A DNA stretch of 64,000 nt, from contig DAIQMY010000001.1 in the NCBI GenBank assembly GCA_036788695.1, forward strand, positions 313,773-377,772, given 5' to 3'. Below are positions 1 to 18,975 of this stretch, one piece after another (within the stretch, counting starts at the first letter, position 1; each line of letters opens with the position of its first letter). Below the pieces are notes generated by a model. The model did not search any database. It was not told the origin of the DNA and saw nothing but the letters and a program-made list of their open reading frames with translations. The position numbers and the translations under genes were made by a program. Source of the DNA: Candidatus Levyibacteriota bacterium. GTDB lineage: Bacteria; Patescibacteriota; Microgenomatia; Levybacterales; GWA1-39-11.

Positions 1-528
1 AATGCAATTAAGGGAGGAGCAATTCCTGCAGAATTCTGTACCTCAATAGAAAAAGGCGTTAAAGAAACTCTGGAAAATGGGCTTTTATTGGGGTATCCAG
101 TGGTTGACTTAAAGGTTACGCTATATGATGGGTCATATCATGATGTTGACTCGTCTGACATGGCATTTAAGATTGCTGGATCTATGGCGCTTCAGGATGC
201 AGCTAAAAAAGGTCAGTTATCCCTTTTGGAGCCTATTATGAAGATAGAGGTAACCACTCCTGAAGAGTTTATGGGGGATGTGATAGGTGATCTTTCATCA
301 AAGCGTGCGCAGATTACAGGAACTGAAGAGCGTGGAAATGCGCGTATTATTCATGGAGAGGTTCCCTTAGAAGAGCTTTCAGGGTATGCTACTACAATTC
401 GTTCTATGTCTCAGGGGCGCGCAACATATTATATGGAGCCATCTCATTACCAAGAAGTTCCTCGAAACATTGTTGACGCAATGTTGGCAAAGACCACATT
501 TACAGGACGTGTATCTGCGCAATCATAA
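1..528 (+). CDS. fusA: Elongation factor G, C-terminal part (5' end lies outside the window)
   Basis: Frame 1 reads through from position 1 (NAIKGGAIPAEF...GYPVVDLKVTLYDGSYHDVDSSDMAFKIAGSMA), matching the EF-G domain IV/V consensus. Stop at 526-528. Confidence 0.9.
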   Translation, partial: NAIKGGAIPAEFCTSIEKGVKETLENGLLLGYPVVDLKVTLYDGSYHDVDSSDMAFKIAGSMALQDAAKKGQLSLLEPIMKIEVTTPEEFMGDVIGDLSSKRAQITGTEERGNARIIHGEVPLEELSGYATTIRSMSQGRATYYMEPSHYQEVPRNIVDAMLAKTTFTGRVSAQS

Positions 529-575
529 ACTTCTTGAAAACTCAAGAATATAGTGTTACTATTATTCAATAAATT

Positions 576-1022
576 ATGGCTGATAATTCTCAAATTCCCC
601 AATTTGACAAATCCCAATTCAATAATGATGGTTATGTAAAACGCGTTGAAAAGCCATGGGGATATGAATTGCATTTTGTGCGGGAGGGTATGCCATATAT
701 GGGTAAGTTAATGCATATTAATGCAGGATGCAGGCAGTCTATGCAGCTTCACGATGCTAAGCAAGAAACGTATCTTGTGACATCTGGCAAAGCCAAGGTA
801 CTTTGGGAAAACAGTAAGGGAGAATTAATTGAGACAGAGCTTGTGCCAAATATAGGATTTACGACTCTTCTGGGGCAAAGACACAGGCTTTGTGGTATAA
901 GTGATTGCGATATTCTTGAATTTTCAACACCAGAAAAGGGTACTACATGGAGGCTTGAGGATGATTATAGTAGACCAGATGAAACACCCGAGCAAAGAAA
1001 GAAAGAAAGGGGAGAAAAATAG
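576..1022 (+). CDS. Cupin-domain protein (mannose-6-phosphate isomerase-like cupin)
   Basis: KPWGYELHF...G.YMGKLMHINAG motif typical of the cupin_2 fold. Sits next to the SIS isomerase gene. Confidence 0.55.
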   Translation: MADNSQIPQFDKSQFNNDGYVKRVEKPWGYELHFVREGMPYMGKLMHINAGCRQSMQLHDAKQETYLVTSGKAKVLWENSKGELIETELVPNIGFTTLLGQRHRLCGISDCDILEFSTPEKGTTWRLEDDYSRPDETPEQRKKERGEK

Positions 1023-1031
1023 AAGATATTT

Positions 1032-2075
1032 ATGGTTGACTTTACAAACATAGACGAAGTAAAAAGACTTGATCCTCAGGACACCTTGCGTTCTACGCAA
1101 TTACTTCCAGAACAATTAGAGGCTGCATGGGATGAGGTGAGGCAGATTCAAGTTCCTCAAGGGTACAATAACGTTTCAAACATTATTTTTTGTGGTATGG
1201 GAGCATCCATATATGGAGCACTCGTTGTAAAAGCACTTTTTGGTTCTGACTTTTCGTATCCAATAGAAATGGTATCAGACTATCATCTCCCAAAGTATGT
1301 AAATAATAATTCGCTTGTTGTTCTAACGAGCTATTCAGGTACAACTGAAGAAGTCTTATCTTGCGCGCATGAAGCACGTGAAAAAGGGGCGAAGATGTTA
1401 ATCCTCACAAAAGGTGGTCAATTGGCAGAGTTTGCGAAACAAGAAAACGTACCCTCATACATATTTAATGGAGCGTTAAATCCTGCTGGTGTTCCAAGGC
1501 TTGGTAATGGGTACACAATAATTGGGCTAATGGGTCTTTTGCATAATGCAGGAATAATTACATTAGATGAGGGCTTATTGAAGGGGGGGATTGAACATAT
1601 TAGGAAAAATAAAGACGCGATTGTTGAACGAGCCATGCATGATGCGCATAGTATGGTAGGTAAAATTCCAGTTATTTTTGCGGCAGAACATTTATCAGGA
1701 AATGCCCAGATATTAAGAAATCAATTTAATGAAACAAGTAAAACTTTTTCTGCCTATTACTTAATCCCTGATCTAAATCATCATCTCATGGAGGGTTTAC
1801 AGTTCCCATCCCCTAGTAATTTAAAGTTTATGATATTTGATTCTCATGCATATTCTCCAAAAATTCAAAAAAGAGTAGAGCTGACTTTAGATGTTGTTCG
1901 TCAAAATAATCACACAATACTTGAGTATATTACTCGCGGAACCGACAAGTATCAGGATTTTCTTGAAGTATTATCTCTTGGTTCATACACTACTTTATAT
2001 TTGGGGCTTTTATATGAACAAAATCCTGCAATAAACCCTTGGGTTGACTACTTTAAAGAAAAATTAGCAGCATAG
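1032..2075 (+). CDS. SIS-domain bifunctional phosphoglucose/phosphomannose isomerase (archaeal/CPR type)
   Basis: 347 aa. SIS-type nucleotide/sugar-phosphate binding region (IIFCGMGASIYGA...VLTSYSGTTEE). Length and layout fit the PGI/PMI family. Confidence 0.6.
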   Translation: MVDFTNIDEVKRLDPQDTLRSTQLLPEQLEAAWDEVRQIQVPQGYNNVSNIIFCGMGASIYGALVVKALFGSDFSYPIEMVSDYHLPKYVNNNSLVVLTSYSGTTEEVLSCAHEAREKGAKMLILTKGGQLAEFAKQENVPSYIFNGALNPAGVPRLGNGYTIIGLMGLLHNAGIITLDEGLLKGGIEHIRKNKDAIVERAMHDAHSMVGKIPVIFAAEHLSGNAQILRNQFNETSKTFSAYYLIPDLNHHLMEGLQFPSPSNLKFMIFDSHAYSPKIQKRVELTLDVVRQNNHTILEYITRGTDKYQDFLEVLSLGSYTTLYLGLLYEQNPAINPWVDYFKEKLAA

Positions 2076-2083
2076 ACAGATAT

Positions 2084-2410
2084 ATGAGGTTCTCTCCTAC
2101 CCTTTTTTTGGTTCTACAATTTTTTATTCTTTTTCCCTCAGTACTTTTTATCTTAGGTATATTTTTTACATTTTTTGCAAAAGATGCAACAGTATATAAC
2201 CTTGTAATTTCAAAAAATATTTTACAAAACATAGGTGTTTTGATTATTTCTCCTCTAGCTTCTGGATTTGTTGCTTATCACTATTTAGAGAGGTATCGAC
2301 CGGAGGGATTTGTAGAACTGGTATCAAAATATCTGTTGGGATATACAATAATAGTTTTAGGTTCTACCATTATTTTTCTATTCTTGAAATTTTTTTCTAG
2401 CCTTTCTTGA
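2084..2410 (+). CDS. Small polytopic membrane protein, hypothetical
   Basis: 108 aa with 3-4 hydrophobic helices. No recognisable motif. Confidence 0.4.
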   Translation: MRFSPTLFLVLQFFILFPSVLFILGIFFTFFAKDATVYNLVISKNILQNIGVLIISPLASGFVAYHYLERYRPEGFVELVSKYLLGYTIIVLGSTIIFLFLKFFSSLS

Positions 2411-2441
2411 TTAACCTACACCAATCACATACAATATCGAC

Positions 2442-3410
2442 ATGATAGTTATTAGGGACGCGCAGATGAAGGATTATTTGTGGTACAAAATTGGTGGAAG
2501 CGCTCGTTATCTGCTGCAATGCTTTTCTGAAGAAGACATAGTTGAAGCTTTTGAGTTTATAAAAAAAGAAAAAATTGAGACCTATTTTATAGTAGGTATG
2601 GGCTCAAATCTTCTTTTCACTGATGGATACTTTGACGGTGTAGTTATACAAATAGTAATAGATACGCAAGGCTCGGGAATTACTCTCTTAGATAAAGAAA
2701 CAATACAGGCATTTTCTGGGGTGGAGCTCGACTCTGTAATTCAGTTTGCTTTTGAGAATAACCTATTGGGATTGGAGTGGGCGGGTGGATTACCTGGTAC
2801 TGTCGGAGCAGCGATTAGGGGAAATGTTGGAGCATTTGGAGGTGAATTTAAAGACTGTTTTAAGGCAGCGCGTGTTCTAGTTTACAATAAGAGAACATAT
2901 AAAGTTTTAGAGTTAAATAAGCGGGATATAAAATTTGCGTATAGGACAAGCACAATAAAAAAACAGAAAAATATGATTGTGCTTTCTGCCACATTTAAAC
3001 TTAAAAAAGTTGATGATAAAAAGTTAGGATGGGGGAAGCAAACATATTTTGCAAATATAGAGTACCGAAAGAGTAAGCATCCAATGGATTTTCCCTCAAC
3101 AGGATCTGCATTTAAGAACATAAACAACCCAGAGAACATAGAAAAAATACTAACTGTTTTTCCTGATATTGAATCTGATGTGAGAATCAAATGGCATGGG
3201 AAGGTGAGTATGGGATATCTCAATAAGCGTCTTGAGCTTTCGGGCTTACAAATCGGTCAGGCTCATATCTCAAATAAACATAGTAATTTCATTGTGAATT
3301 TAGGAGGTGCGACTGCGTTAGATGTTCTATCTGTAATAAAAAAGGTGCAGGAAACATTCCAAGAAACATTTGGATTTATTCCTGAGCTTGAAGTAGAGAT
3401 AGTATCGTAA
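2442..3410 (+). CDS. murB: UDP-N-acetylenolpyruvoylglucosamine reductase
   Basis: FAD-binding PCMH-type N-terminal region (IGGSARYL...GMGSNLLF). C-terminal MurB region (GSAFKN...HSNFIVNLGGATA.DVL). Confidence 0.7.
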   Translation: MIVIRDAQMKDYLWYKIGGSARYLLQCFSEEDIVEAFEFIKKEKIETYFIVGMGSNLLFTDGYFDGVVIQIVIDTQGSGITLLDKETIQAFSGVELDSVIQFAFENNLLGLEWAGGLPGTVGAAIRGNVGAFGGEFKDCFKAARVLVYNKRTYKVLELNKRDIKFAYRTSTIKKQKNMIVLSATFKLKKVDDKKLGWGKQTYFANIEYRKSKHPMDFPSTGSAFKNINNPENIEKILTVFPDIESDVRIKWHGKVSMGYLNKRLELSGLQIGQAHISNKHSNFIVNLGGATALDVLSVIKKVQETFQETFGFIPELEVEIVS

Positions 3411-3443
3411 AAAACTTAAAAAGCCAACCTGAGCATATAATCT

Positions 3444-4247
3444 ATGAGTTCTAAAAAATATAAATTATTAATTTCAGACTATGATGGAACCCTTTCTGGT
3501 CCTGAGTTTGCTATTCCTGATAAGACAGCTCACGCGATTAAAAAATGGATGTCAACCGATCACTTATTCTCAATCGCTTCCGGAAGGCAGTACCTTATGC
3601 TTAAAAAAGACTGTACTTTGCTGGACTTGTCTACCCCACTCATTGTTAGGGGAGGTGCAGAGATTGTGGATCCAAAAAATGATAACATTATCTTTCAAGA
3701 GCAAATACCTAAAGAGACAGTTGCTGAAATTTTTAAAATTTTAAAAAAACACACTGATAAAATCGCGCTTGAAAAAGATGATACAATTTTTTCTTCCTTC
3801 AAATTCGCAGGCGATTTTCCTGAAGTAAAAAGAAAGAGTCTTGATGAGTTCACGATTACCTCCCTTCCTAAAATAGTGGCGAAGGCAGATCACAAGAAGA
3901 GTGGAGAGTTAGAGATAGTGATGGATAGCATAGTAAAAAAATTTCCAGAACTACACATAGTAAGAAGTTATACTCCCCTAGGATCTGGATATGATATAAC
4001 CTCTATTAAGGCAACAAAACATCTTGCCACTCTTGAATTGATAAAATTATTGGGATTATTCCCTGAAGATGTTATAGGGGTAGGAGATGGATATAATGAT
4101 TTTCCACTTCTTGAGGCATGTGGTTTAAAGGTTGCTATGGAAAATTCCCCGGATGAGCTGAAGGCTATTGCGGATATGGTAATTCCTGCGCAAAGAGAAG
4201 AAGGGGTGGCATTTCTTATCGAAAAACTCCTGAAAGAAGAAGGCTAA
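3444..4247 (+). CDS. HAD-superfamily hydrolase, Cof-like (subfamily IIB)
   Basis: Motif I LISDYDGTL. Motif IV GDGYNDFPLL. Confidence 0.7.
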   Translation: MSSKKYKLLISDYDGTLSGPEFAIPDKTAHAIKKWMSTDHLFSIASGRQYLMLKKDCTLLDLSTPLIVRGGAEIVDPKNDNIIFQEQIPKETVAEIFKILKKHTDKIALEKDDTIFSSFKFAGDFPEVKRKSLDEFTITSLPKIVAKADHKKSGELEIVMDSIVKKFPELHIVRSYTPLGSGYDITSIKATKHLATLELIKLLGLFPEDVIGVGDGYNDFPLLEACGLKVAMENSPDELKAIADMVIPAQREEGVAFLIEKLLKEEG

Positions 4248-4418
4248 AGAAGCCAGTGTATTAAAAAACTGTTTTTATAAAATAGTTCCCCAGGCGTAAA
4301 CAACTTAAAAAATTACCATATAGTATGTAATGATTCGCAAAATACACTTAGCTTTGTTGAATATTTTTAGAACTCTTGTAAACGCATCATAAGCTGCAAT
4401 CAGCTAGTATGATACAAT

Positions 4419-5489
4419 GTGTGCGTGCGAAAAATATTTTTACTTTTTAGTATACTTTTCTGTTTTTTTGTTTTATTTCTGTATCTTAAATCAACATTTC
4501 AAAAAAAAACTGTTCAACCAATTCGGGAGACTAGGACTGAAAAAATAGAAACAAGGGTTTCGCCGAAAGAAGAGTATTTATTCGTTCCTTACTGGACTAT
4601 AGATGAAGATATTTCATCTAGTGAGATGACATTAGTATATTTTGGGGTTTTGGGTGGGAAAAATGGGATTGAACAGAGTGATGAAGGATATAAAAACTTA
4701 TCAATGTTTGAAGAAAATAAAAATAGAAAAGACAGCATATTAGTTTTAAGAATGTTAAATACAGATACTAATTTAGATATATTAAAAGACAAAAAAATAC
4801 AGCAACGAATTATAGATGAGACAATAGTTCTTGCAAAGAAACACCACTTTTCAGGAATTATCTTGGACTTTGAAACGCAAGGATTGCCATTTAAAACTTT
4901 GCTTGAGAGCATTACGTCAATGCATGCGTTATTTGCAAAACAGACCCATTTATCAAGCCTTTCATTTGGTACATTACTATTTGGAGATACATTTTATAGA
5001 GTGCGTCCATATGATGTAGAAAAGATTGTGGAAGTGGTAGACCGCGCATATATAATGGCATACGACTTTAGTAAGGCCAAGGGTGACCCAGGTCCCAATT
5101 TTCCATTAAATGGGAAAAACACGTATGGATATGATTTTAAGATAATGGTTGAGGATTTTTTAGATGTTATACCTGGGCATAAGTTGACAATTATTTTTGG
5201 TATGTTTGGGTATGACTGGAAAATTGATGATAAAGGAAGAGGTCGAGAGCAAGCGATTTCTAAAAGTACAATTGCTTTTGAAAAATTTATGTCAACCTGC
5301 ATATCTAGTAGTACGTGTGATGCAAAAATGGATAGCCAATCAGCAGAAACTAACATAAAGTATATATCTGAGGACAAAGAGAATCATGTAATTTGGTTTG
5401 AAAATTCTGAATCTGTTATGAGAAAGAAAGCATTTCTTACTGACTTGGGTTTACGATCAGTTGGCTACTGGGCGTACTCATATTATTAG
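4419..5489 (+). CDS. Membrane-anchored GH18-like glycosyl hydrolase-fold protein (putative)
   Basis: N-terminal transmembrane anchor. GH18-like motifs GVLGG (SxGG-like), SGIILDFE (DxxDxDxE-like, retaining D and E) and IMAYDF (MxYD). Confidence 0.45.
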   Translation: MCVRKIFLLFSILFCFFVLFLYLKSTFQKKTVQPIRETRTEKIETRVSPKEEYLFVPYWTIDEDISSSEMTLVYFGVLGGKNGIEQSDEGYKNLSMFEENKNRKDSILVLRMLNTDTNLDILKDKKIQQRIIDETIVLAKKHHFSGIILDFETQGLPFKTLLESITSMHALFAKQTHLSSLSFGTLLFGDTFYRVRPYDVEKIVEVVDRAYIMAYDFSKAKGDPGPNFPLNGKNTYGYDFKIMVEDFLDVIPGHKLTIIFGMFGYDWKIDDKGRGREQAISKSTIAFEKFMSTCISSSTCDAKMDSQSAETNIKYISEDKENHVIWFENSESVMRKKAFLTDLGLRSVGYWAYSYY

Positions 5490-6060
5490 AAGCTTCTTTG
5501 CAAAAAATTGTTAATGGAGAAGTTCCCGTTAAAAGAGAAGAAGGAGTTTTTTGAGATCCCGCAAAACTTTTATTTAAAAAACGTATAACATGGGATCCGG
5601 TAGGAGTAGGTGAGTCAATGGTAAAAGTAAGTATTGCTACTTTGCTATTTCCTTTTTTTTCTGTGTTTTGTGCATTTAATTCCAGAGCGAGCGATGCTCT
5701 TCCATACTGTTCACGCGTTTCCTCAAGTAAAATTGAATAATCGGTACTTTCTCCAAAGAAATTTGGAGAATAGGGGGTAAGTCTCACGTTTTGAATCACT
5801 TCAGGGTTATATGACAATTCAATCTGTATGCTGTTTAGATAATTATTTTCAGACGAGACGTAGATAGGAACCTCATAAGAAGAATTTATACATGAGGATG
5901 TGATTGTATTCGGGTTGAAAAAAAGTATGGAAGACGGTGAATTGGAGCTAGATTCATTTTTTTGAGTAAGTGAGTTAAATGGTGATACATAAGACAATAA
6001 AAGAAATAGAAGAATTAGAACAAATATAGTTATTCCTAAAACAACGAGATATTTACTCAT
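5437..6060 (-). CDS. Membrane-anchored cohesin-like domain protein (putative)
   Basis: N-terminal TM helix, Ser-rich linker, then a ~110-aa beta-rich domain with a cohesin-like SYNPEVIQNV motif (compare cohesin SYDPNVLE). Its start lies 3 bp downstream of the stop of the dockerin-bearing protease gene. Confidence 0.4.
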   Translation of the reverse strand: MSKYLVVLGITIFVLILLFLLLSYVSPFNSLTQKNESSSNSPSSILFFNPNTITSSCINSSYEVPIYVSSENNYLNSIQIELSYNPEVIQNVRLTPYSPNFFGESTDYSILLEETREQYGRASLALELNAQNTEKKGNSKVAILTFTIDSPTPTGSHVIRFLNKSFAGSQKTPSSLLTGTSPLTIFCKEASNNMSTPSSQLIVNPSQ

Positions 6061-6063
6061 GAG

Positions 6064-8523
6064 TTAATCCCCGCCTCTTTCTCTTAGTTGTCTTAAGAAA
6101 ATATTCAAATCTTTTTCATCTATGTTTCCTTCATTATCAAAATCTGCAGTTATATGTATATCGTCGCAGATGTTGTTTATTATACAATTGACTAAGATGT
6201 TATAGTCTAGAATATCAAGCACGCCGTCTTTTACTAGGTCTCCAACAGTTAAGGCAGTAGTAGGAAGAGTTATATTATTTCCACTATCTTTTATAGTATA
6301 AAAACCTGGAATTGATTTTTTAAGCGTGGAAGACGCATCGGCGAAATTCACTCTCAGTTGGTATATTCCTGGAGGAATATTTAAAATCGGGATTTCCCCT
6401 GAAAACACACCGTTTTCATAGAGTAAGGGAGTTGTGATGGTTGAAGTAATTTCTCCATTCTTGTCAATAAATTCAATACTAGCAAATCTTACTTTACTGA
6501 TTGGGTCTGTGTTCCCTCCAGCCCCTATTCCAGGATGAATAAGTGATATTTTAATGGTTCCTTTGGATGAAGAAGATGTAGGTGTAGGGTTTGAGGGGGA
6601 GGGAGTACTTGCTACAGAAGTGATAGTGGGCGTAATAGCTGTAGTTGGGGTAGGATTTTGTGGTTGAGCTGTGGGGGTTGGGTTATTTGGCGAGTCTGTT
6701 GGAGTAGGATTTTGGTTATCAGGCATTAAAGAGTTTACTGCGCGTGCAAGATTTAATCGCGGACCAATAGGTCTATCAGTTGATATAGTATCTGCATTTG
6801 AAACTAATATGTTTTTTACTTCATCTGGTGATAGATTTGGGTTAATAGACAGCAGAAGTCCCGCAGCGCCTGCAACATGAGGGGTAGCCATAGATGTACC
6901 ATTGAGACTTTCGTATTGATTTTGTGGCCAGGTAGAAATAATTGATACACCCGGGGCGGAAATGTTGACAATCGAACCGTAGTTTGAAAAAGAGGCGCGT
7001 TGATCAGATTGCGTAGTTGCGCCTACTACAAATGTGCCATTACAGTTAGCAGGAGAACTTGTAGAAGCGTCGACTGGGATTCCTCCGGAAACTCCGTTTC
7101 CTGCTGCTACTATAACGCTTACATTAGCATTTCTCGCGTAGTCTACTGCTTCCTGAAATATACCACAAGGAGAATATCCACCCAAACTCATATTAATAAC
7201 TTTTGCTCCATTGTCTACAGCATAATGAATTGCCTGAATAATGATAGAGTCGTCTCCTTGACACTCACCGTTGTATTGTCCCATCGATTTAATTGCTAAT
7301 ATCTTTACATTCCAATTTACGCCTACAACTCCAATATTGTTATTGGTTAGGGCACCAATTGTGCCCGCTACATGTGTTCCATGTCCACATTCGTCCTGGG
7401 AGTCACTTGTTCCGTTAAAGAAATTATATCCATTTTCAATATGTCCAGATAAATCTTGGTGATTGTAATCAACCCCAGAATCAATAACTGCGACTTTAAT
7501 ATTATTATTTCCTTTTGCCTTGTTCCATGCACTAGGTCCTTGAATTTTTTCCATCCCCCACATTTGTGAAAAATATGGGTCGTTTGGAATCTCTGTTGTT
7601 TGTTTTATCCCGTTTTCAACTGCAAGTTCCACTGTTGGAAGTTTTTTATATTCATCTAGCGCGTTTTGTATTGATGTGTTTTTATCTAATGTTATGACTT
7701 GTGCATATTCTAGGGGTGTTTCATATTTCGTATTTTCCAGTAAGTTTTTTTCTTGGATAAAACTAACTTTCTCTTTGGTATCTGCATATAGCTCTTGTAG
7801 AACCATTGGATTTGGAGTTCTTGACATAGAATTTGCAGCATCCATTGCAGCTATTCTTGCCTGACCAAGTATAGGTTGAGAAGCAATTTTTGCTCTTTCT
7901 TGAAGATTTTCTGCCACGTTTGCAGGTGTTGTACCCTTTTTATACTGTACAATTATTTGCTGTTTTGAACGTTCGATTGGGCTTCTATCCGCTGACTGAA
8001 TAGTTTGAGTGGTTTTGATAGAGTTTGGTGCAGCATTTTTAACTTGAGGCAGCGCAAGAAATAGTTTAACAGCCTTTCTTACGTCAGACCCTTTTTTTAA
8101 GGTTACAAGATTAGTTGCTGACTGAGTTTTTTTTATAGGATATAAGTTTTTTTGAGATATGACCCCAGATTCCTCTTCAACCTTTGCTATCTGTTGTAAT
8201 TGATTAGTGTAGAAAGAAGTTCCTGGTATTTTGCCTGACAATTCCATAAAGAACATTTTAGTTTTATTTATAATTCCCTGAGAGTCTAGTTGTCGTTCTT
8301 TTAATGCAGCCTTGAGCTGTAAAGGGGAAAGTCCTGGTTGGTATACGACAATAATTTGAGAAGAATACTTTTCTAGCTGATTTTCAGCTACGGAATTTGG
8401 GGCAGCATAAGAAGAAGTACATACTGTTTTTAGCAGGAAAAAAAGTATAAGTAAAATAAGACCTCTTTTTAACACATATATATAGTAGCCTGCAAAAAAA
8501 AACTTCGCAATAGGAAAAAGCAT
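6064..8523 (-). CDS. Secreted subtilisin-like serine protease (S8) with duplicated N-terminal propeptide-like domains, Pro/Thr linker and C-terminal dockerin-like domain
   Basis: Signal/TM at N-terminus. Catalytic triad motifs VIDSGVD, HGTHVAGT, GTSMATPHVAG. PT-rich linker (NPTPTDSPNNPTPTAQPQNPTPT...). C-terminal DLVKDGVLDILDYNILV...DFDNEGNIDEKDLNIFL resembles a tandem dockerin calcium-binding repeat. Confidence 0.85.
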   Translation of the reverse strand: MLFPIAKFFFAGYYIYVLKRGLILLILFFLLKTVCTSSYAAPNSVAENQLEKYSSQIIVVYQPGLSPLQLKAALKERQLDSQGIINKTKMFFMELSGKIPGTSFYTNQLQQIAKVEEESGVISQKNLYPIKKTQSATNLVTLKKGSDVRKAVKLFLALPQVKNAAPNSIKTTQTIQSADRSPIERSKQQIIVQYKKGTTPANVAENLQERAKIASQPILGQARIAAMDAANSMSRTPNPMVLQELYADTKEKVSFIQEKNLLENTKYETPLEYAQVITLDKNTSIQNALDEYKKLPTVELAVENGIKQTTEIPNDPYFSQMWGMEKIQGPSAWNKAKGNNNIKVAVIDSGVDYNHQDLSGHIENGYNFFNGTSDSQDECGHGTHVAGTIGALTNNNIGVVGVNWNVKILAIKSMGQYNGECQGDDSIIIQAIHYAVDNGAKVINMSLGGYSPCGIFQEAVDYARNANVSVIVAAGNGVSGGIPVDASTSSPANCNGTFVVGATTQSDQRASFSNYGSIVNISAPGVSIISTWPQNQYESLNGTSMATPHVAGAAGLLLSINPNLSPDEVKNILVSNADTISTDRPIGPRLNLARAVNSLMPDNQNPTPTDSPNNPTPTAQPQNPTPTTAITPTITSVASTPSPSNPTPTSSSSKGTIKISLIHPGIGAGGNTDPISKVRFASIEFIDKNGEITSTITTPLLYENGVFSGEIPILNIPPGIYQLRVNFADASSTLKKSIPGFYTIKDSGNNITLPTTALTVGDLVKDGVLDILDYNILVNCIINNICDDIHITADFDNEGNIDEKDLNIFLRQLRERGGD

Positions 8524-8552
8524 AATAAGATCACTGTTTTTTAAAATACCCC

Positions 8553-8581
8553 TTGACGAGTTTTGAAAGATGTTGTATTAT
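8553..8581 (+). promoter_or_regulatory. Sigma-70-like promoter upstream of tuf
   Basis: TTGACG (8553-8558), 17-nt spacer, TATTAT (8576-8581). ~45 nt upstream of the tuf start. Confidence 0.5.
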
Positions 8582-8626
8582 ACTTTTTACACCTTAAAAA
8601 AGAGGTGATTTTTTTGATTTAAATAT

Positions 8627-9805
8627 ATGGCAACATTTCAACGAAACAAACCACACGTTAATATTGGAACTATCGGTCACGTCGACCATGGTAAAACTAC
8701 TTTAACTGCAGCTATTACCACTGTTTTGGCCAAAAAAGGAATGGCTGAAGCACGCAAATACGAAGATATAGATAATGCTCCAGAAGAGCGAGCAAGAGGT
8801 GTTACGATTAACATTTCTCATCAAGAATACGAAACAGAAAAACGTCACTACGCACACATTGATGCTCCAGGACACGCTGATTATATTAAAAACATGATTA
8901 CTGGTGCCGCACAAATGGATGGAGCAATCTTGGTAGTATCTGCTGCTGACGGTCCAATGCCTCAAACACGTGAACATATCCTTCTTGCGCGTCAGGTTGG
9001 AGTTCCGGCTCTTGTTGTTTTTCTTAATAAAGTAGATATGGTACAAGATCCAGAGCTTATTGATTTAGTTGAGATGGAAGTACGTGAACTTCTTTCAAAA
9101 TATCAATATCCAGGAGATGAGATTCCTATGGTTAAAGGATCAGCTCTTAAGGCAACTCAGGGAGATGCAGAAGCAGAAGCTCAAATAATGGAATTAATGG
9201 CAAAGGTTGATGAATATATTCCTACTCCAGAACGACCAACAGATAAGCCATTATTGATGCCTGTTGAGGACGTTTTTTCTATTAAAGGACGCGGAACAGT
9301 TGTTACAGGACGTATTGAGCGCGGAATTGTAAAAATTAACGATACAGTCGCAATTATAGGTATAAAACCTACAAAGGAAGTAGTTGTTACCGGAGTTGAG
9401 ATGTTTAGAAAACAACTAGACGAAGGACAAGCAGGAGACAATGTAGGTCTTTTACTTCGTGGAATTGAAAAGCAGGATGTAGAGCGCGGACAAGTAATAG
9501 CCAAGCCAGGAAGTATCACTCCACATACAAAATTTGAGGCTGAAGTTTATATTCTTACAAAGGAAGAAGGAGGAAGACACACTCCATTCTTCTCCGGGTA
9601 CAGACCACAATTTTATATCAGAACAACTGACGTTACTGGAGAAATCAAGCTTCAAGAAGGCGTTGAAATGGTTATGCCTGGAGATAACGCAAAAATGACT
9701 GCTGAGCTTATAGTCCCTGTAGCTATGGAAGACGGAATGAGATTTGCAATTCGCGAAGGTGGACGCACAGTTGGAGCAGGAGTTGTTACCAAAATCTTAG
9801 CTTAA
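8627..9805 (+). CDS. tuf: Elongation factor Tu
   Basis: [27 protein letters not shown] motifs. 392 aa. Confidence 0.97.
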
Positions 9806-9873
9806 TAGCTTTTGATTATTTGCACATTTTACATTTAAATTTAGTCCGCCAAGTCGGCGGATGGTAACACAGA

Positions 9874-9899
9874 CCTCGCATCCAATGCGAGGTTTTTTT
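9874..9899 (+). terminator. Rho-independent terminator/attenuator between tuf and rpsJ
   Basis: 8-bp perfect stem CCTCGCAT/ATGCGAGG, loop CCA, followed by T7. A second hairpin (9845-9861) precedes it. Confidence 0.7.
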
Positions 9900-9915
9900 G
9901 TTTAAGGAGAAAAAA

Positions 9916-10224
9916 ATGCCAAAAGGAAGAATAAGAGTTAGACTAAAATCATATGATCCCAGGATTATAGATAGTACGTGTCAACAAATCTTAGACACGG
10001 CAATTCGTACTGGAGCAAAAGTAGTTGGTCCTGTACCTCTTCCTACTCAACGATCTATGTTTGCAGTTAATAAATCTGCGTTTGTTGATAAAAACGCGCA
10101 AGAACATTTTCAAATTAAAACACATAAACGCCTTATTGATATTATGTCCCCAACAGATAACACTATAGAATCCTTAATCCACTTAGATCTCCCAGCAGGT
10201 GTGGATGTAGAAATTAAGATGTAA
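9916..10224 (+). CDS. rpsJ: 30S ribosomal protein S10
   Basis: MPKGRIRVRLKSYD... Shine-Dalgarno AAGGAG 7 nt upstream of ATG 9916. The ORF-track start at 9898 is a TTG inside the terminator T-tract. Confidence 0.95.
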   Translation: MPKGRIRVRLKSYDPRIIDSTCQQILDTAIRTGAKVVGPVPLPTQRSMFAVNKSAFVDKNAQEHFQIKTHKRLIDIMSPTDNTIESLIHLDLPAGVDVEIKM

Positions 10225-10225
10225 C

Positions 10226-10600
10226 ATGTCTTTATTGGAAAGAATACGTGCTCCATTTAAAAAAGCAAATCATTTTCCACCCGTGGTTTTTCCCTCAAGT
10301 AAAGAAGTAAAGAAGACCCCCACAACTGAAAATCCATATGCGAATAATTCTTTAAATGACTTTTTAAAGATTAATTCATTTGAAAAATTATCAACAGAAG
10401 AGCGGATTCAAATTTCTAAAAACCTTCGCAAGATGGCAGAAGAAGCAGAGAGCGAATTTCATGAAAAAAGTGCGATTCGAGACAGAGATGAGAGCGTGAA
10501 ACTTATGAGAATAGTGTTTGAATTGGAGAAAATGAATAATTACCAGACAGATACATCTGAGGTGAATCAGGATTTTTCATCTTCCAAGCATCTAAAATAG
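10226..10600 (+). CDS. Hypothetical hydrophilic K/E-rich protein inserted between rpsJ and rplC
   Basis: 124-aa ORF starting 2 nt after the rpsJ stop. No recognisable domain. Codon usage resembles neighbours. Confidence 0.45.
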   Translation: MSLLERIRAPFKKANHFPPVVFPSSKEVKKTPTTENPYANNSLNDFLKINSFEKLSTEERIQISKNLRKMAEEAESEFHEKSAIRDRDESVKLMRIVFELEKMNNYQTDTSEVNQDFSSSKHLK

Positions 10601-10750
10601 ATGGGATACGTTTCCATAGAGAGTTTAGCCTCGTTGCGAGCTTGCATTTTGCTTACGACTTCTATATAATAACTTTTACTCATGTTTAGGTTTACTACCG
10701 AGACTGAATGGAACACTACATAAGAGCTTAGCTGCATTTTTTTGCGTATG

Positions 10751-10778
10751 AAGCGACTTTATGTAGTCGCTTTTTTTG
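10751..10778 (+). promoter_or_regulatory. Terminator-like hairpin + U-tract immediately upstream of rplC start (putative attenuator)
   Basis: AAGCGACT-TTATGT-AGTCGCTT, a perfect 8-bp stem, followed by T7. It ends 12 nt before the rplC ATG. Confidence 0.5.
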
Positions 10779-10789
10779 TGTTTAAACAT

Positions 10790-11671
10790 ATGTCTTTACA
10801 AGCAATTATTGGGAAAAAAATAGATCAGACGCAGGCATTTCTGGAAGACGGAAGACGAATTCCTCTTTCACTGATTTCTGTGTCTGGAAATGTTATTGCA
10901 CAAGTAAAGACATTGGAAAAGGACAAATATACGTCTGTACAGCTTGGATTTGGAGATAAAAAAAAGGTAAATAAAGCAACAGAAGGACATGTAAAAAAAG
11001 CGGGACTTACAAAAACACCCCGCTTTTTTCGTGAAGTAAAAGTTGAAGATATCACAGGATATGAGGTTGGGACAGTCGTAAACGTTGAGGAAATGCTTGA
11101 GCTAGGAGACGTTATTGATGTAACTGGAACATCAAAGGGAAAAGGATATGCTGGGGTAGTTAAAAGACATGGGTTTAAAGGTGGACCGAGAACGCACGGA
11201 CAGTCTGATCGTGAACGCGCGCCTGGTTCAATCGGTCAAACAACAACACCTGGACGTGTTTATAAGGGAAAAAGGATGTCCGGGCGTATGGGAAATGAGC
11301 GTGTGACTATTAAAAATCTGACAGTAGTTGATATTAAAGATGGCATAATTTATGTTCGTGGTTTGGTTCCAGGGGTGAAGGGGTCATTAGTAATGATTTC
11401 AAAAGTGAAAGAAGATAAGAGAAGTAGAGCCACAAAGAAGAAATTTGTTCCTCTTTTCTCAATCAAAGAAGAGGTTCTTGAAGAAAAAAGCGTAGAGCCT
11501 GTTGTTGTAGAGACTGTAGAAGTTGAGACACTTCCCGAAGATCCACAAAAAGTTGTTGAAGAAAAGATAGAGGAAACAGCTGCGCCTATAGAAATAGCAA
11601 AAGAAGAAGTAAAAGTAGACGATAAACCTAAAAAAGAAGCTGTATCTGAAGGAAAAGAGGAGGATAAGTAA
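10790..11671 (+). CDS. rplC: 50S ribosomal protein L3 with long K/E-rich C-terminal extension
   Basis: MSLQAIIGKKIDQTQAF start. L3 core through ~residue 200, then ~90 aa charged tail (KVKEDKRSRATKKK...EGKEEDK). Confidence 0.9.
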   Translation: MSLQAIIGKKIDQTQAFLEDGRRIPLSLISVSGNVIAQVKTLEKDKYTSVQLGFGDKKKVNKATEGHVKKAGLTKTPRFFREVKVEDITGYEVGTVVNVEEMLELGDVIDVTGTSKGKGYAGVVKRHGFKGGPRTHGQSDRERAPGSIGQTTTPGRVYKGKRMSGRMGNERVTIKNLTVVDIKDGIIYVRGLVPGVKGSLVMISKVKEDKRSRATKKKFVPLFSIKEEVLEEKSVEPVVVETVEVETLPEDPQKVVEEKIEETAAPIEIAKEEVKVDDKPKKEAVSEGKEEDK

Positions 11672-11673
11672 TT

Positions 11674-12465
11674 ATGGCTGAAAAAAAGATAAAAAAAGAA
11701 GCAAGCGCACAAAAGACAAAAACTCTTGATAAAAAAACAGTGGTGAAGCCCGTAAAGGAGAATGTGAAGATTATGAAAGATACAAAAAAGAGCAAAATGA
11801 AAACAAACGAGCCAAAGGACGCAGTAATCTCCACAAAAGAAACATTTTCAGTAGATGTATATGGATTAGATGGCAAGGTATCAGGGAAGGTAAATATTCC
11901 CACTGAAATCTTTAAAGCAAAGGTAAACCTTACTTTAATGGCTCAGGCTGTAAGAGTATATCTTGCAACGCAAAGAAGCGGAACATCTTCTACAAAAACA
12001 AGATCAGAAGTTTCAGGAACAACAAAGAAGATGTATCGCCAGAAGGGTACGGGTCGTGCGCGCCATGGAGCCGCAAAAGCGCCTATTTTTGTGGGTGGTG
12101 GAATTGCTTTTGGTCCAAAACCGAGAAGCTTTGCTCTAACCCTTCCGAAGAAAATGAGAAGGAAAGCGCTTTTCTCTGCCTTAACAAGTAAGTATTCAGA
12201 AAATAATCTTATGATTTTAGATGCAGCACAGGCTACAGGGAAAACAAAAGAAATTGTAAACACATTTAAAAATCTTGGACTAACAAAAAAAGTAACTATT
12301 GTGGTTACTCCAGAAGAAAAACAGATTTCCCGTGCAGCAAGAAATATTAAGGGAGTAACAGTTGAGCACGCTGCAAACTTAAATACCTATAGCGTTTTAA
12401 ATAGTAATACTGTTATTTTTGCAAAAGATGCACTTAGTATTTTGCAGAGTACGTTTTTAAAATAA
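11674..12465 (+). CDS. rplD: 50S ribosomal protein L4 with K-rich N-terminal extension
   Basis: L4 core (GTGRARHGA...PIFVGGG...FGP). ~55-aa lysine-rich N-terminal leader. Confidence 0.9.
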   Translation: MAEKKIKKEASAQKTKTLDKKTVVKPVKENVKIMKDTKKSKMKTNEPKDAVISTKETFSVDVYGLDGKVSGKVNIPTEIFKAKVNLTLMAQAVRVYLATQRSGTSSTKTRSEVSGTTKKMYRQKGTGRARHGAAKAPIFVGGGIAFGPKPRSFALTLPKKMRRKALFSALTSKYSENNLMILDAAQATGKTKEIVNTFKNLGLTKKVTIVVTPEEKQISRAARNIKGVTVEHAANLNTYSVLNSNTVIFAKDALSILQSTFLK

Positions 12466-13902: not shown

Positions 13903-14346
13903 ATGCAATACGTAGCAGAAGCAAAAAATGTTAGAATATCACCTCGGAAGATGAGGTTGGTAGTTGATGGGGTAAGGAAAATGCCAATAGATAAGGCAAT
14001 AGCAACTCTTTCAATAGCAAGTCAGAGAGCGTCTGACCCTATTAAAAAGGCCTTGGAAAGTGCTATTGCGAATGCGGTTCATAATGGTCAGGTTAAAAAA
14101 GAGGAGCTATATATATTTGAAATGTTTGTAAATGAAGGAACCTCATATAAAAGGTTCCACTATGCAGGAAGAGGAAGGACACGACCATATAAGAAGAGAT
14201 CAAGTCACTTAAAAGTGATACTTGGAGTAAAGGACGTAATAGCAAATCCTTTAACTGAGATTGAAGAAGGAAAAAAAGACGAAAAACCAATGAAGACAAT
14301 AAAGAAAAGAGAAACTAAGAAAGGAGAAAAACAAGTTAGTAAATAA
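13903..14346 (+). CDS. rplV: 50S ribosomal protein L22 with K-rich C-terminal tail
   Basis: L22 core (AEAKNVRISPRKMRLV). Tail EEGKKDEKPMKTIKKRETKKGEKQVSK. Confidence 0.9.
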   Translation: MQYVAEAKNVRISPRKMRLVVDGVRKMPIDKAIATLSIASQRASDPIKKALESAIANAVHNGQVKKEELYIFEMFVNEGTSYKRFHYAGRGRTRPYKKRSSHLKVILGVKDVIANPLTEIEEGKKDEKPMKTIKKRETKKGEKQVSK

Positions 14347-14367
14347 CTTGCTGAATAATTAAACCAA

Positions 14368-15012
14368 ATGGGACAAAAAGTTAACCCAATTGCATTAAGA
14401 CTTGGAGGTCATCAGAGCTTTTTAAGCGTCGGATACTATTCTAAGAAAATGTATCCTAAGATTACCCTTCAGGATATAAAAATTCGGGAAATGCTTTATA
14501 AAAAGCTAAAGCAAGCGGGGGTTGGAAGGATTGTAATAGAAAGATCAGTCAGTACAATTAAAATTACAATATTTGTAGTTCGTCCCGGAATAGTAATAGG
14601 GCGAGGAGGAAGTGGGCTTGAAGATATTAAAAGAATGGTGCTGGGGATGTTATTTGAGCCTAAAAAAGATAAAAAAAATCAACCAAGAGTAGAATTAAAG
14701 GTGGAACCAGTTAAAGACCCTAATCTATCAGCATTCTTAGTTGCATCTAATATTTCAGATCAACTCATAAGGAGAATGCCTTTTAGGAGAATTATGAAGC
14801 AGTCAATTGAAAAGGTTATGGGAAGTGGAGCTAAGGGAGTAAGAATAGTTTTAGCAGGAAGAATCAATGGGGCAGAGATTGGACGTCGTGAGAGATTGCA
14901 GGTTGGAAAAGTATCACTTTCAACAATCCGAGAAGATATTGATTACGCGAGTGTCCCAGCTCTTACAAAATCTGGGTATATAGGAGTGAAAGTATGGATA
15001 GATCGGGGATAA
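14368..15012 (+). CDS. rpsC: 30S ribosomal protein S3
   Basis: MGQKVNPIALRLG... KH domain GRGGSGLEDIK. Confidence 0.95.
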   Translation: MGQKVNPIALRLGGHQSFLSVGYYSKKMYPKITLQDIKIREMLYKKLKQAGVGRIVIERSVSTIKITIFVVRPGIVIGRGGSGLEDIKRMVLGMLFEPKKDKKNQPRVELKVEPVKDPNLSAFLVASNISDQLIRRMPFRRIMKQSIEKVMGSGAKGVRIVLAGRINGAEIGRRERLQVGKVSLSTIREDIDYASVPALTKSGYIGVKVWIDRG

Positions 15013-15049
15013 ATAGAGTGAAGGATAATTTGAAATTTAATTAAATAAT

Positions 15050-15460
15050 ATGTTAACACCAAGAAGAACAAAATATAGAAAACAATTTAGACCAAAAACG
15101 GTTGAAAAACCATCTAGGGGTGGAAATTATGTAGCCTTTGGAGAGTTTGGATTAAAGGCTATGAATTCAGGAAATGTTTCAAGTAGGCAGATAGAGGCAG
15201 GGAGAAAGGCTATGACCCATTTTACAAAAAGAGGCGGACGTATCTGGATTCGAATTTTTCCTGATCGCCCAACTACTCGCAAGCCGCCTGAGACGAGAAT
15301 GGGTGGAGGTAAGGGTGATTTGCATGAATATGTAGCACCTGTTCAGACTGGAAGAATAATTTTTGAAATGGGTGGAATACCAGAAACTATAGCTCGAGAA
15401 GCAATGAGATTGGCAGCAAATAAGCTACCTATAAAATGCAGAGTAGTTGAAAGAAAATAG
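15050..15460 (+). CDS. rplP: 50S ribosomal protein L16
   Basis: MLTPRRTKYRKQFR... Confidence 0.95.
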   Translation: MLTPRRTKYRKQFRPKTVEKPSRGGNYVAFGEFGLKAMNSGNVSSRQIEAGRKAMTHFTKRGGRIWIRIFPDRPTTRKPPETRMGGGKGDLHEYVAPVQTGRIIFEMGGIPETIAREAMRLAANKLPIKCRVVERK

Positions 15461-15478
15461 AAGAAAAAGATTAAAATT

Positions 15479-15694
15479 ATGAAAAAGAAAGATTTAGAAA
15501 ATTTGCGCTTGAAAACAAAAAATGAACTCACTGTTCTTGCGGGCTCACTTTGGATTGAAATCATGAAGGCACAAATAGACAAGAAAACTAGTGGTAAAGT
15601 AAAAAATGTGAATGAGGCAAAAAATAAGATGAAAGACAGAGCACGAATTTTAACAATTATTGGAGAAAAGGAAAGGGAGGTAAAACATGTCTAA
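15479..15694 (+). CDS. rpmC: 50S ribosomal protein L29
   Basis: 71 aa. DLENLRLKTKNELTVLAGSL matches the L29 helix. Confidence 0.85.
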   Translation: MKKKDLENLRLKTKNELTVLAGSLWIEIMKAQIDKKTSGKVKNVNEAKNKMKDRARILTIIGEKEREVKHV

Positions 15695-15935
15695 AAAAAC
15701 ATTTATTGGAAAAGTAGTTTCAGACAAGATGAAGAACACTATAATCGTTGCAATTGAAAGAAATATTGCGCACCCACGTTATGGGAAACTGATTAAAAGA
15801 ACACAAAAACTTATGGCTGATACGGGTGGGGTGGATGTAGTTGTTGGTGATACCGTTAAGATTGAAGAGATCAAACCAATGAGTAAAAATAAAAATTTTA
15901 AAGTTGTGAAAAAGGAGGAGGACAAGTCTAAGTAA
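15687..15935 (+). CDS. rpsQ: 30S ribosomal protein S17
   Basis: FIGKVVSDKMKNTIIVAIER...HPRYGK. Confidence 0.9.
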   Translation: MSKKTFIGKVVSDKMKNTIIVAIERNIAHPRYGKLIKRTQKLMADTGGVDVVVGDTVKIEEIKPMSKNKNFKVVKKEEDKSK

Positions 15936-15951
15936 ATATATGCTCAACTCA

Positions 15952-15988
15952 TCCCGATAGATCGGGACGAGCCTCAACATATTTTTTT
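15952..15988 (+). promoter_or_regulatory. Hairpin + T-tract at S10/spc operon boundary (putative attenuator/processing site)
   Basis: 7-bp stem TCCCGAT/ATCGGGA (15952-15967). T7 at 15982-15988. It sits in the 72-bp gap between rpsQ and rplN, which is the S10/spc operon boundary in E. coli. Confidence 0.35.
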
Positions 15989-16007
15989 CTTGATAAACTC
16001 ATAAAAA

Positions 16008-16382
16008 ATGGTACAACACAGAACAAAATTAATAGTTGCAGATAATTCAGGCGTTAAAGAGCTGATGGTAATCCACATTTATGGTGGATCAACAAGAAGG
16101 AAAGGTCATATTGGTAGTATTCTTGGATGTGTTGTTAAGAGGTCACTTCCAAATACTCAGTTTAAAAAGGGTGACAAGGTAAAAGCAGTACTGGTTCGCT
16201 CAAGGAAAGAATTTAAGAGAATTGACGGAACATATATTAGATTTTCGGAGAACGCAGGAGTTGTTATTGAGAATGCGGAAACAAAAAACCCTGTAGGAAC
16301 AAGAATTTTTGGTCCTATAGCACGAGAGATTAAAGAGGAGGGGTTTGCAAAGATTGCATCTTTAGCAAGTCACGTTGTTTAA
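16008..16382 (+). CDS. rplN: 50S ribosomal protein L14
   Basis: [19 protein letters not shown]...IRF..NA.V......P.GTRIFGP.ARE. Confidence 0.95.
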
Positions 16383-16398
16383 GAAAGGAATTATAAAA

Positions 16399-16698
16399 AT
16401 GAAAATAAAAAAAGGAGATACAGTTAAAATTACTCGCGGAAAAGATAAGGGAAAAGAGGGAATTGTTGAAAAAGTGAAAGCAGGAACAATTGTTGTTCCA
16501 GGAGTAAATGAATTCAAGAGACACATAAAGAAGAGTGCAACTGGACAAAAGTCTGAGATTGTTACTATTACAAAACCAATGCAGGCTTCAGTAGTTGCGC
16601 TTATTTGTCCAAAGTGTAAAAAGCAAACACGTATTGGGTATTTGATAAAAGAAGGCGGAAAAGTAAGAATCTGTAGAAAATGCAAAAAAGAGATTTAA
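16399..16698 (+). CDS. rplX: 50S ribosomal protein L24 with C-terminal 4-Cys zinc-ribbon
   Basis: KOW motif KIKKGDTVKITRGKDKGKEG. Start likely ATG 16399, with AAGGAA SD. The ORF-track start 16375 overlaps rplN. C-terminus CPKC...(15 aa)...CRKC. Confidence 0.88.
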   Translation: MKIKKGDTVKITRGKDKGKEGIVEKVKAGTIVVPGVNEFKRHIKKSATGQKSEIVTITKPMQASVVALICPKCKKQTRIGYLIKEGGKVRICRKCKKEI

Positions 16699-16713
16699 AA
16701 AAATACTAAAACT

Positions 16714-16827
16714 ATGAAAGTACAAGCGTCAATAAAAAAAAGATGTAAAAAATGCAAGGTTATTAAAAGACGAGGAGTCCTGTTTATAATTTGTGAGATT
16801 CCAAAACATAAACAAAGACAGGGATAA
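16714..16827 (+). CDS. rpmJ: 50S ribosomal protein L36
   Basis: 37-aa ORF not in the ORF track, read by hand: [37 protein letters not shown]. Matches the L36 C-x2-C-x12-C-x4-H zinc-ribbon consensus. Confidence 0.9.
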
Positions 16828-16853
16828 GTTCAGATAATACTATAAATAAAATT

Positions 16854-17396: not shown

Positions 17397-17401
17397 AATA
17401 T

Positions 17402-17587
17402 ATGGCAAAAAAATCAAGCATAGTAAAGTTTCAACACAAACAGAAATTTAAAACAAGAGATGTAAACAGGTGCGCACTTTGTGGGCGTTCCCGTTCCTAT
17501 CTACGCCGTTTTGGTTTGTGTAGAATTTGTTTTAGAGAAAAAGCATTGAAAGGAGAATTGCCAGGAGTAACAAAGGCGAGTTGGTAA
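17402..17587 (+). CDS. rpsN: 30S ribosomal protein S14 type Z (zinc-binding)
   Basis: 61 aa. [23 protein letters not shown]. Confidence 0.95.
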
Positions 17588-17599
17588 GAAAATAAATAT

Positions 17600-17986: not shown

Positions 17987-18004
17987 TGATTTGCGTAAAG
18001 ATCT

Positions 18005-18556: not shown

Positions 18557-18606
18557 CCATTTATAGTATGTAACTTCAAAAAACGAAGAAATAAAATATT
18601 AAAATT

Positions 18607-18972: not shown

Positions 18973-18975
18973 TAT

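Follow-up and report, generated by a model that had tools for sequence, protein, structure and literature searches.

What separates the genes for the elongation factors EF-G (fusA) and EF-Tu (tuf) in a genome of Candidatus Levyibacteriota? In the canonical str operon of Escherichia coli and Bacillus subtilis, the gene order is rpsL-rpsG-fusA-tufA, and textbooks present the rpoBC-str-S10-spc-alpha cluster as the prime case of a gene order that resists rearrangement. In the 64-kb stretch analyzed here (contig DAIQMY010000001.1 of assembly GCA_036788695.1, positions 313,773 to 377,772; hereafter the window), fusA and tuf do not form an adjacent, co-directional str pair but are separated by a gap of 8,098 bp (positions 529-8626) that includes two minus-strand genes. 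Searches against Pfam and NCBIfam identify in this interval genes for a cupin, a phosphoglucose/phosphomannose isomerase (PGI/PMI), a membrane protein, MurB, a HAD hydrolase, a GH18 protein, and a pair of a cohesin-like protein and a protease. These labels agree with those of a preliminary description of the locus, which counted seven intervening genes where eight open reading frames (ORFs) are found, and which regarded the block as an accessory insertion. The comparison with related genomes described below indicates that the interval is, with high probability, a break of the str operon that is ancient and has been inherited vertically in the sampled Candidatus Levybacteria (Microgenomates, candidate phyla radiation (CPR)).

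The relatives were chosen for the similarity of their sequences, with at least 85% identity in EF-Tu, rather than from a phylogeny. In none of the 12 lineages sampled in this way is fusA found beside tuf; the gap spans 6.8-15.0 kb in the 10 lineages in which both ends were seen, and murB lies within it in 9 of the 10 lineages in which the stretch is readable. Within the subclade of the window, which comprises the sister strain GCA_964419005.1 (L002), the sister species GCA_018062815.1 (L001; 80-88% nucleotide identity to the window) and the loci L093-L095, the 5′ part of the interval is invariably fusA, none to two ORFs, cupin, PGI/PMI, membrane ORF and murB, followed by HAD, NUDIX and glyoxalase genes in varying combination, GH18, the minus-strand cohesin and S8 protease genes, and tuf. 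This order is maintained at considerable divergence, the identity of MurB to that of the window being 87% in L001, 71% in L093, 67% in L094 and 66% in L095. The preliminary description had proposed to compare the synteny around fusA and tuf and had conceded that a block shared across the lineage would be a trait of that lineage and not an insertion; this is largely what is observed, with one gene order in the subclade, a gap in all 12 lineages and murB within it in nine.

In deeper lineages (EF-Tu 85-94% and MurB 50-57% identical to those of the window), fusA and tuf are likewise apart, with murB between them and other neighbors around it. The interval of L096 and L088 encompasses an abhydrolase, an ATP-citrate-lyase-like pair, murB, Dus, LigD_N and PDDEXK genes and, in its remainder, HhH-GPD, LytR_C, GH18, GpsA and a 451-aa ORF; that of L097 holds murB, DUF1361, HhH-GPD, DUF488, LytR_C and a DsbD-thioredoxin protein; and those of L098 and L099 share the ATP-citrate-lyase-like pair, murB, HhH-GPD, LytR_C and thioredoxin/DsbD, with GreA additionally present in L098 and PIG-L in L099. 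L089 carries murB, amidohydrolase, HhH-GPD, LytR_C, glyoxalase and PIG-L, and the interval of L100, which is devoid of murB, consists of ddl, the ATP-citrate-lyase-like pair, ICMT, PIG-L and GH18. A GH18 gene upstream of tuf recurs outside the subclade, namely in L087, L088/L096 and L100. A scan of metagenomes with murB yielded only three short loci. The ATP-citrate-lyase-like pair, a side observation, combines Citrate_synth_N/Citrate_bind with Ligase_CoA/Citrate_synt domains and is located between fusA and murB (L096, 6842-9881; L098, 6646-9615; L099, 1356-4311) or, in L100 where murB is missing, between ddl and ICMT (4360-7371); a literature search returned no paper on ATP-citrate lyase in Levybacteria, nor one on their str operon.

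How the gap arose is suggested by the order of the flanking genes. Levybacteria retain the four genes of the canonical str operon in the same order and orientation but have lost their contiguity and possible co-transcription, with 8.1 kb and an opposing operon between fusA and tuf in the window. Over a longer range, the order and orientation rpoC-rpsL-rpsG...fusA...tuf-rpsJ-rplC are kept in L093-L095 and L097, and this collinearity with widened junctions points to genes inserted one after another into what was once the canonical order, rather than to translocation, and to an old event with later turnover; historically, it would appear, genes entered the fusA-tuf junction and tuf was not moved away. 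The junction between rpsG and fusA is open as well, by 3.3-4.0 kb with four to six genes, among which those for a peptidyl-prolyl isomerase and an M24 peptidase, on the opposite strand, recur, so that the str operon of Levybacteria is split in three; these gaps are located at positions 1869-5231 in L093, 1893-5724 in L094, 1688-4483 in L095 and 3764-7291 in L097. Additional ORFs are present between tuf and rpsJ in L088 and L095. Between rpsJ and rplC, the window contains a 124-aa ORF (10226-10600, plus strand, an ORF call) that is shared with the sister strain and has no match in Pfam and NCBIfam searches; the same junction harbors a PAS/HisKA histidine kinase gene in L087 (11792-13282), a cation-efflux gene in L097 (18429-19289) and a NUDIX gene in L098 (17515-17943). 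From rplC onward, the cluster stays tight in these genomes.

Under an alternative history, there was no insertion at all: fusA and tuf were never adjacent in the ancestor, and a tuf-S10 cluster joined the neighborhood of murB by translocation. This possibility gains some substance from bacteria at large, for which a background set was drawn from an EF-Tu scan of genome contigs that covered at least 80 unrelated bacteria, with no Levybacteria among the matches listed. Among these matches, 71 unrelated tuf loci had enough upstream sequence; fusA lies within 300 bp of tuf in 35 of them and at distances of 1.0 and 4.7 kb in two others, whereas in the remaining 34, about half, no fusA is found in the 2.7-10 kb of sequence upstream of tuf. 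Many of these 34 are presumably tufB-type copies or come from lineages in which tuf resides elsewhere. The fusA-tuf junction is therefore frequent, though not one of the most strictly kept, and to rank it with the most conserved junctions of bacterial genomes was an overstatement. A further argument for translocation comes from a patescibacterial locus (L014, 7158-9799), in which the alpha operon, rpsM-rpsK-rpsD-rpoA-rplQ, directly precedes tuf-rpsJ-rplC; here the ribosomal supercluster has been rearranged in another manner. However, the canonical order and orientation in Levybacteria, with every junction merely widened, are predicted by serial insertion and not by translocation, and in a nearest match from outside Levybacteria among those listed (L008, of uncertain taxonomic placement) fusA is 196 bp away from tuf. 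Given these observations, translocation appears improbable.

The proposal that the block was inserted as one 8-kb unit, a recent and horizontally acquired accessory island, into an intact fusA-tuf operon finds even less support. It would account for the presence of eight genes unrelated to translation between two genes that lie side by side in about half of the sampled unrelated bacteria, and two further observations are in its favor: the cohesin gene has just eight detectable homologues, so that the cohesin module is young, and L007 (of uncertain taxonomic placement) has a 4.7-kb insert between fusA and tuf, consisting of an AAA_14/DUF4143 ATPase gene and a gene without known function. The block itself, however, is native in composition. 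Its GC content is 0.358 compared with 0.368 for the remaining window, and its tetranucleotide distance is 0.109 against a window mean of 0.118, with 43 of 56 equal-sized segments deviating more strongly; the compositional comparison with the flanks that the preliminary description called for thus shows a block typical of the window. No integrase or transposase domains were detected among the Pfam matches of the block, no repeats were found at its boundaries (528/8626), and a tRNA search identified no tRNA gene near it, the only one in the window being at 29617. An empty site was sought among the relatives, but each of the five subclade loci contains the block, and the gap exists in all 12 lineages.

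The divergence of the block also speaks against recent acquisition. The block and its flanks (fusA and ribosomal genes) diverge evenly from the sister strain, at 96-99% nucleotide identity; the same gene order is found in species with a MurB identity of only 66-71%; and across relatives the identity of MurB tracks that of EF-Tu (Spearman 0.83, p 0.005, n=9, computed from sequence identities), which is what vertical co-inheritance predicts. Moreover, the block includes murB, a core gene of peptidoglycan precursor synthesis. A recent island is accordingly very improbable, and this interpretation can be considered largely refuted: of the earlier view, the notion that genes entered the fusA-tuf junction in the past is retained, whereas a discrete, recent or foreign accessory element finds no support. 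An assembly chimera at one or both junctions would be conceivable for a metagenome-assembled genome, which is the source of the window, and had been named as a caveat. Several contigs of independent assembly, taken from NCBI, ENA, Logan and JGI, nevertheless span both junctions with the same arrangement (250-592 kb for the NCBI contigs that cover both the fusA-side and the tuf-side junction), and the sister strain is collinear with the window at about 98% nucleotide identity over some 19.7 kb, in two aligned blocks with an indel of about 70 bp between them. Because independent assemblies span both junctions, chimerism is excluded for all practical purposes. The HAD gene is discordant: its product is only 51% identical to that of the L001 copy, where MurB is 87% identical and EF-Tu is identical, and 65% identical to that of the more distant L094. 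This discordance suggests a replacement of the allele or gene in place.

The history that we favor, an ancient break followed by turnover, would begin early in the evolution of Levybacteria with the entry of genes into the junction between fusA and tuf. From then on, murB would have stayed in the junction in nearly all descendants, and the loss of the operon link would have made the interval permissive to the gain, loss and replacement of genes. The version seen in the window is that of a single subclade and comprises three units: the genes probably for sugar-phosphate and UDP-MurNAc precursors (cupin, PGI/PMI, membrane ORF, murB and HAD), the gene for a GH18 protein resembling peptidoglycan hydrolases, and a convergent operon for an S8 protease and a cohesin, the protease being probably tethered to the surface. 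The elongation factor gene tuf would be expressed from its own near-consensus sigma-70 promoter, with a hairpin in the 5′ leader.

Multigene invasion of a translation-gene cluster is a known type of event, seen here in an uncultivated phylum. Brandis described cases in Gammaproteobacteria and Bacilli in which a few genes invade a cluster junction, selection for linkage relaxes and rearrangements follow (PMC8046335; PMC6735719). The Levybacteria resemble these cases (PMC8046335) in that the order of the flanking cluster is kept, the insertion is inherited and later rearrangement occurs at the same junction; these traits are apparent in the retention of murB in nine lineages while its neighbors turn over and in the preserved flanking order. 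They differ from the published cases, which mostly lie between operons (rpoBC|str, str|S10), in that the breaks are inside the str operon (fusA|tuf, rpsG|fusA), with additional breaks at tuf|rpsJ and rpsJ|rplC, and in their occurrence in a CPR lineage. The gap overturns no current understanding. It shows that in the sampled Levybacteria several 5′ junctions of the cluster, rpsG|fusA, fusA|tuf, tuf|rpsJ and rpsJ|rplC, can open and stay open, and these genomes supply natural data on the proposal that selection on a junction is relaxed once a first insertion has taken place. For practical purposes, the fusA-tuf gap can be employed as a lineage marker in the binning and curation of CPR genomes, and it cautions annotators that such interruptions are not automatically islands or chimeras.

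With the opposing S8-cohesin operon facing tuf, transcription from the side of fusA cannot serve tuf in the subclade of the window, and an own promoter is required. A candidate is found at 8553-8581 on the plus strand, where TTGACG (−35) and TATTAT (−10), 17 nt apart, match the sigma-70 consensus in 10 of 12 positions; sites of the form TTGAC-N16-18-TATNAT occur only twice in the entire window. The claim of the preliminary description that tuf has its own promoter is corroborated by conservation: TTGACG is invariant in all 12 Levybacteria lineages, whatever the upstream gene or its strand, and some 17 nt further on each lineage has TATTAT, TATCAT or TATATT. The 103-bp spacer between the S8 gene and tuf is 100% identical to that of the sister strain, whereas the adjoining genes differ by 1-4%. 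The predicted promoter evidently predates the subclade and can serve as a specific model of what promoters look like in a phylum without cultivated members. In E. coli, secondary tufA promoters are located inside fusA, and in the tufB-type or tRNA-tuf-secE-nusG arrangement of Proteobacteria, Bacteroidota and others, tuf is likewise transcribed independently of fusA. In these arrangements, however, tuf sits in another conserved neighborhood, whereas tuf of the window stays directly before rpsJ.

Downstream of the promoter, a small hairpin followed by a U-run (8590-8615 in the window, plus strand) is predicted in all 12 lineages, where it starts 6-8 nt after the −10 element (8 nt in the window), lies 10-25 nt before the tuf start codon (about 90 nt in L001) and folds at −4 to −9 kcal/mol; the folds were computed for each sequence separately. 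In most lineages, including that of the window, the stem is CACCU/AGGUG, but L087 carries AACCUU/AAGGUU and L100 AUCUCAUU/AAUGAGAU, so that the structure appears to be kept where the sequence is not. The leader is a candidate 5′-terminal stabilizing stem or weak attenuator. The 3′ arm, AGGUG, was considered as a conserved Shine-Dalgarno sequence of tuf and rejected, given that it lies anywhere from 11 to about 25 nt ahead of the ATG and that the stems of L087 and L100 lack AGGUG. A scan of positions 1-12000 against Rfam yielded nothing above threshold, the tuf leader included.

Unit 1 of the interval follows fusA on the same strand. The window opens inside fusA, of which the last 528 nucleotides (1-528, plus strand) encode the C-terminal 175 aa of EF-G in frame 1 down to the stop codon; this segment is 73-100% identical to the C-termini of the complete EF-G proteins (705-728 aa) that relatives carry at this position. 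The first gene of the interval (576-1022, plus) encodes a cupin of 148 aa with a weak resemblance to phosphomannose isomerases (Pfam MannoseP_isomer, 23.7 bits with a cut-off of 23.6), and in L001, L002 and L093-L095, too, it adjoins the PGI/PMI gene. The latter (1032-2075, plus) encodes a bifunctional phosphoglucose/phosphomannose isomerase with SIS and bact-PGI_C domains, which matches the NCBIfam PGI/PMI models at E 5e-63, below their equivalog cut-offs. The 108-aa product of the next gene (2084-2410, plus) is a membrane protein recognized by its hydrophobic segments, without a match in Pfam and NCBIfam searches. An ORF of 102-113 aa immediately 5′ of murB is present in most Levybacteria loci; homology to the 108-aa protein is confirmed within the subclade (41-95% identity in L001, L002 and L093-L095), whereas in L089, L097 and L098 there is merely an ORF of similar size at this position.

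The murB gene itself, for UDP-N-acetylenolpyruvoylglucosamine reductase (2442-3410, plus; FAD_binding_4 and MurB_C), passes the equivalog cut-off of TIGR00179 (193.5 versus 144.5 bits) and is followed by the gene for a Cof-type HAD-IIB phosphatase that resembles sugar phosphatases (3444-4247, plus; Hydrolase_3, 8e-45; 134.9 bits with TIGR00099, the cut-off being 137). The genes of unit 1 (576-4247) are co-directional, with spacers of 8-47 nt and no predicted terminator, and are probably co-expressed with fusA or just after it; judging from the domains of their products, they likely supply fructose-6-phosphate or mannose-6-phosphate and UDP-MurNAc for the cell envelope.

The second unit is a single gene (4419-5489, plus), whose product is a GH18 protein (Glyco_hydro_18, 68.1 bits with a cut-off of 29.6) that carries a hydrophobic anchor or signal at its N-terminus. 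Its closest solved relatives include cortex-lytic GH18 enzymes, namely YdhD, YaaH and the cortical-lytic enzyme, and its LDFE motif aligns with the catalytic IDFE of 4wiw; by these criteria, the protein is predicted to be peptidoglycan-hydrolase-like. The peptidoglycan GH18 enzymes of spore formers (YdhD, 3cz8; YaaH, 4s3k; cortical-lytic enzyme, 4s3j) are among its best structure matches, and the D-x-E motif is kept. In contrast to these enzymes, the GH18 protein of the window belongs to an organism that does not form spores and has an N-terminal membrane anchor, and LysM domains were not detected in it. The GH18 and cohesin genes converge, and their 3′ ends share 53 nt (5437-5489) in the window and likewise in L001, and 47 nt in L093.

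The third unit consists of two minus-strand genes, 3 nt apart, with the S8 gene upstream. The S8 gene (6064-8523) encodes a secreted subtilase of 819 aa (Peptidase_S8, 9e-62) that carries a pro-domain at its N-terminus and ends in a dockerin-like module; the motifs of the catalytic triad, DSG348, HGT381 and GTSMA542 (D348, H381 and S544), are present. The product of the second gene (5437-6060), a protein of 207 aa, scores with Pfam Cohesin below the cut-off (21.9 versus 24.1 bits). Its AlphaFold2 model (predicted local distance difference test score 85) consists of a helix (residues 2-24) followed by a beta-sandwich, and when this model was compared with the Protein Data Bank using Foldseek, the top 50 matches were all cohesins (E 1e-9, TM 0.7-0.79); in its model, the protein has a cohesin fold, which makes it a single membrane-anchored cohesin module. 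The tail of the protease contains two segments resembling D-x-D/N-x-D-G (residues 761-813), reminiscent of a dockerin, and its similarity to solved dockerins is weak (E 0.04-0.16). Together, the two genes point to a membrane cohesin that probably tethers an S8 protease with a dockerin-like tail to the cell surface.

The cohesin fold of the 207-aa protein is that of the known non-cellulosomal cohesin-dockerin pairs (type I, 6kgf, 1g1k and 4dh2; archaeal, 2xdh), to which the arrangement in the window can be compared. It differs from these in the presence of a single cohesin on a transmembrane helix, in the subtilase as the partner and in its occurrence in a CPR bacterium; the 207-aa protein is 8-16% identical to known cohesins, and its pairing with the S8 protease is predicted from the genes. 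Only eight homologues of the cohesin were found among 5.8 billion proteins, for which reason the cohesin-S8 unit is regarded as a young addition of the subclade. In L094, the corresponding region (14300-19351) has four minus-strand genes, which encode an S8 protease (564 aa), a protein of 291 aa that matches both cohesin and dockerin, an SdrD_B-repeat protein of 812 aa and the cohesin-like protein; this expansion may reflect a small cohesin-dockerin assembly of several components on the surface.

Whether the genes of the interval act together is a separate matter. The preliminary description noticed the mix of cell-wall and surface-protease genes, correctly in that most products of the interval are envelope-related (MurB, the membrane ORF, the anchored GH18 protein, the anchored cohesin and the secreted S8 protease), and saw in it a locus for surface or host-interaction functions. 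In its strongest form, this would be a coherent locus whose genes act together and which is placed at this site for a functional reason. The intervals of other lineages also hold envelope genes, such as ddl, PIG-L, LytR_C, DsbD/thioredoxin and GH18, but they contain unrelated housekeeping genes as well (HhH-GPD, ATP-citrate-lyase-like, GreA, Dus, NUDIX and glyoxalase), the transcription units inside the block oppose each other, and nothing ties the block to a host. Furthermore, the modules differ in their phyletic distribution, murB being near-universal, the cupin-PGI/PMI and cohesin-S8 modules confined to one subclade and GH18 patchy, and therefore the interval is not one functional unit; a coherent locus of this kind seems unlikely. 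A related and rather doubtful possibility is that the interval is a long-lived zone in which envelope genes are repeatedly recruited beside translation-factor genes, such that, in genomes with few regulators, wall synthesis would follow expression coupled to the growth rate. Should this be the case, the conserved promoter and leader hairpin of tuf, together with the similar hairpins before rpsJ and rplC, would represent an undescribed class of leader attenuators or stabilizers that took the place of operon control of the translation genes.

Several points count against an ancient, vertically inherited break, or against parts of the scenario built around it. The node at which the break occurred and the ancestral adjacency of fusA and tuf are placed from collinearity alone, and the statement that the gap is Levybacteria-wide refers to 12 lineages chosen by EF-Tu identity of at least 85%. 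In L087, no fusA is found within 10 kb upstream of tuf, and in some members, such as this one, the fusA-tuf linkage may have been lost fully. The limits of the operons, the activity of the promoter and the function of the hairpin are predicted from sequence. Promoter-like matches in positions 1-11000 are no more common than in shuffled sequence; a consensus match proves little by itself, and hence it is conservation that supports the tuf promoter. Finally, the tail of the S8 protease scores 17.2 bits with Pfam Dockerin_1, below the cut-off of 22.9.

Beyond the interval, tuf (8627-9805, plus) encodes an EF-Tu of 392 aa with the GTP_EFTU, D2 and D3 domains of Pfam. Another ORF of 392 codons, at 37843-39021, was considered as a second tuf copy and dismissed, its product being unrelated to EF-Tu (E 0.33). 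Right after the tuf stop codon, the motif GCACWTTTWACA is conserved in all lineages in which tuf lies beside rpsJ, L100 included. A strong terminator-like hairpin of 11 bp with a U-run is predicted at 9871-9902 (plus strand) and is conserved in most relatives; it is directly followed by the Shine-Dalgarno sequence AAGGAG and the rpsJ start codon (ATG 9916), which leaves no room for a promoter, so that rpsJ seems to depend on read-through. Matches to Rfam below threshold are freshwater-2 (RF02980) at 9845-9918, with 29.1 versus 49.9 bits, and PsrR1 on the opposite strand within 1-12000. The rplC gene probably starts at ATG 10790 (MSLQAIIGKK), the listed start, TTG 10742, being probably wrong, and a further hairpin with a U-run is located just 5′ of this probable start (10750-10773). 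In L001, a gene for ribosomal protein L36 is called between rplX and rplE (17862-17975), an unusual place for rpmJ.

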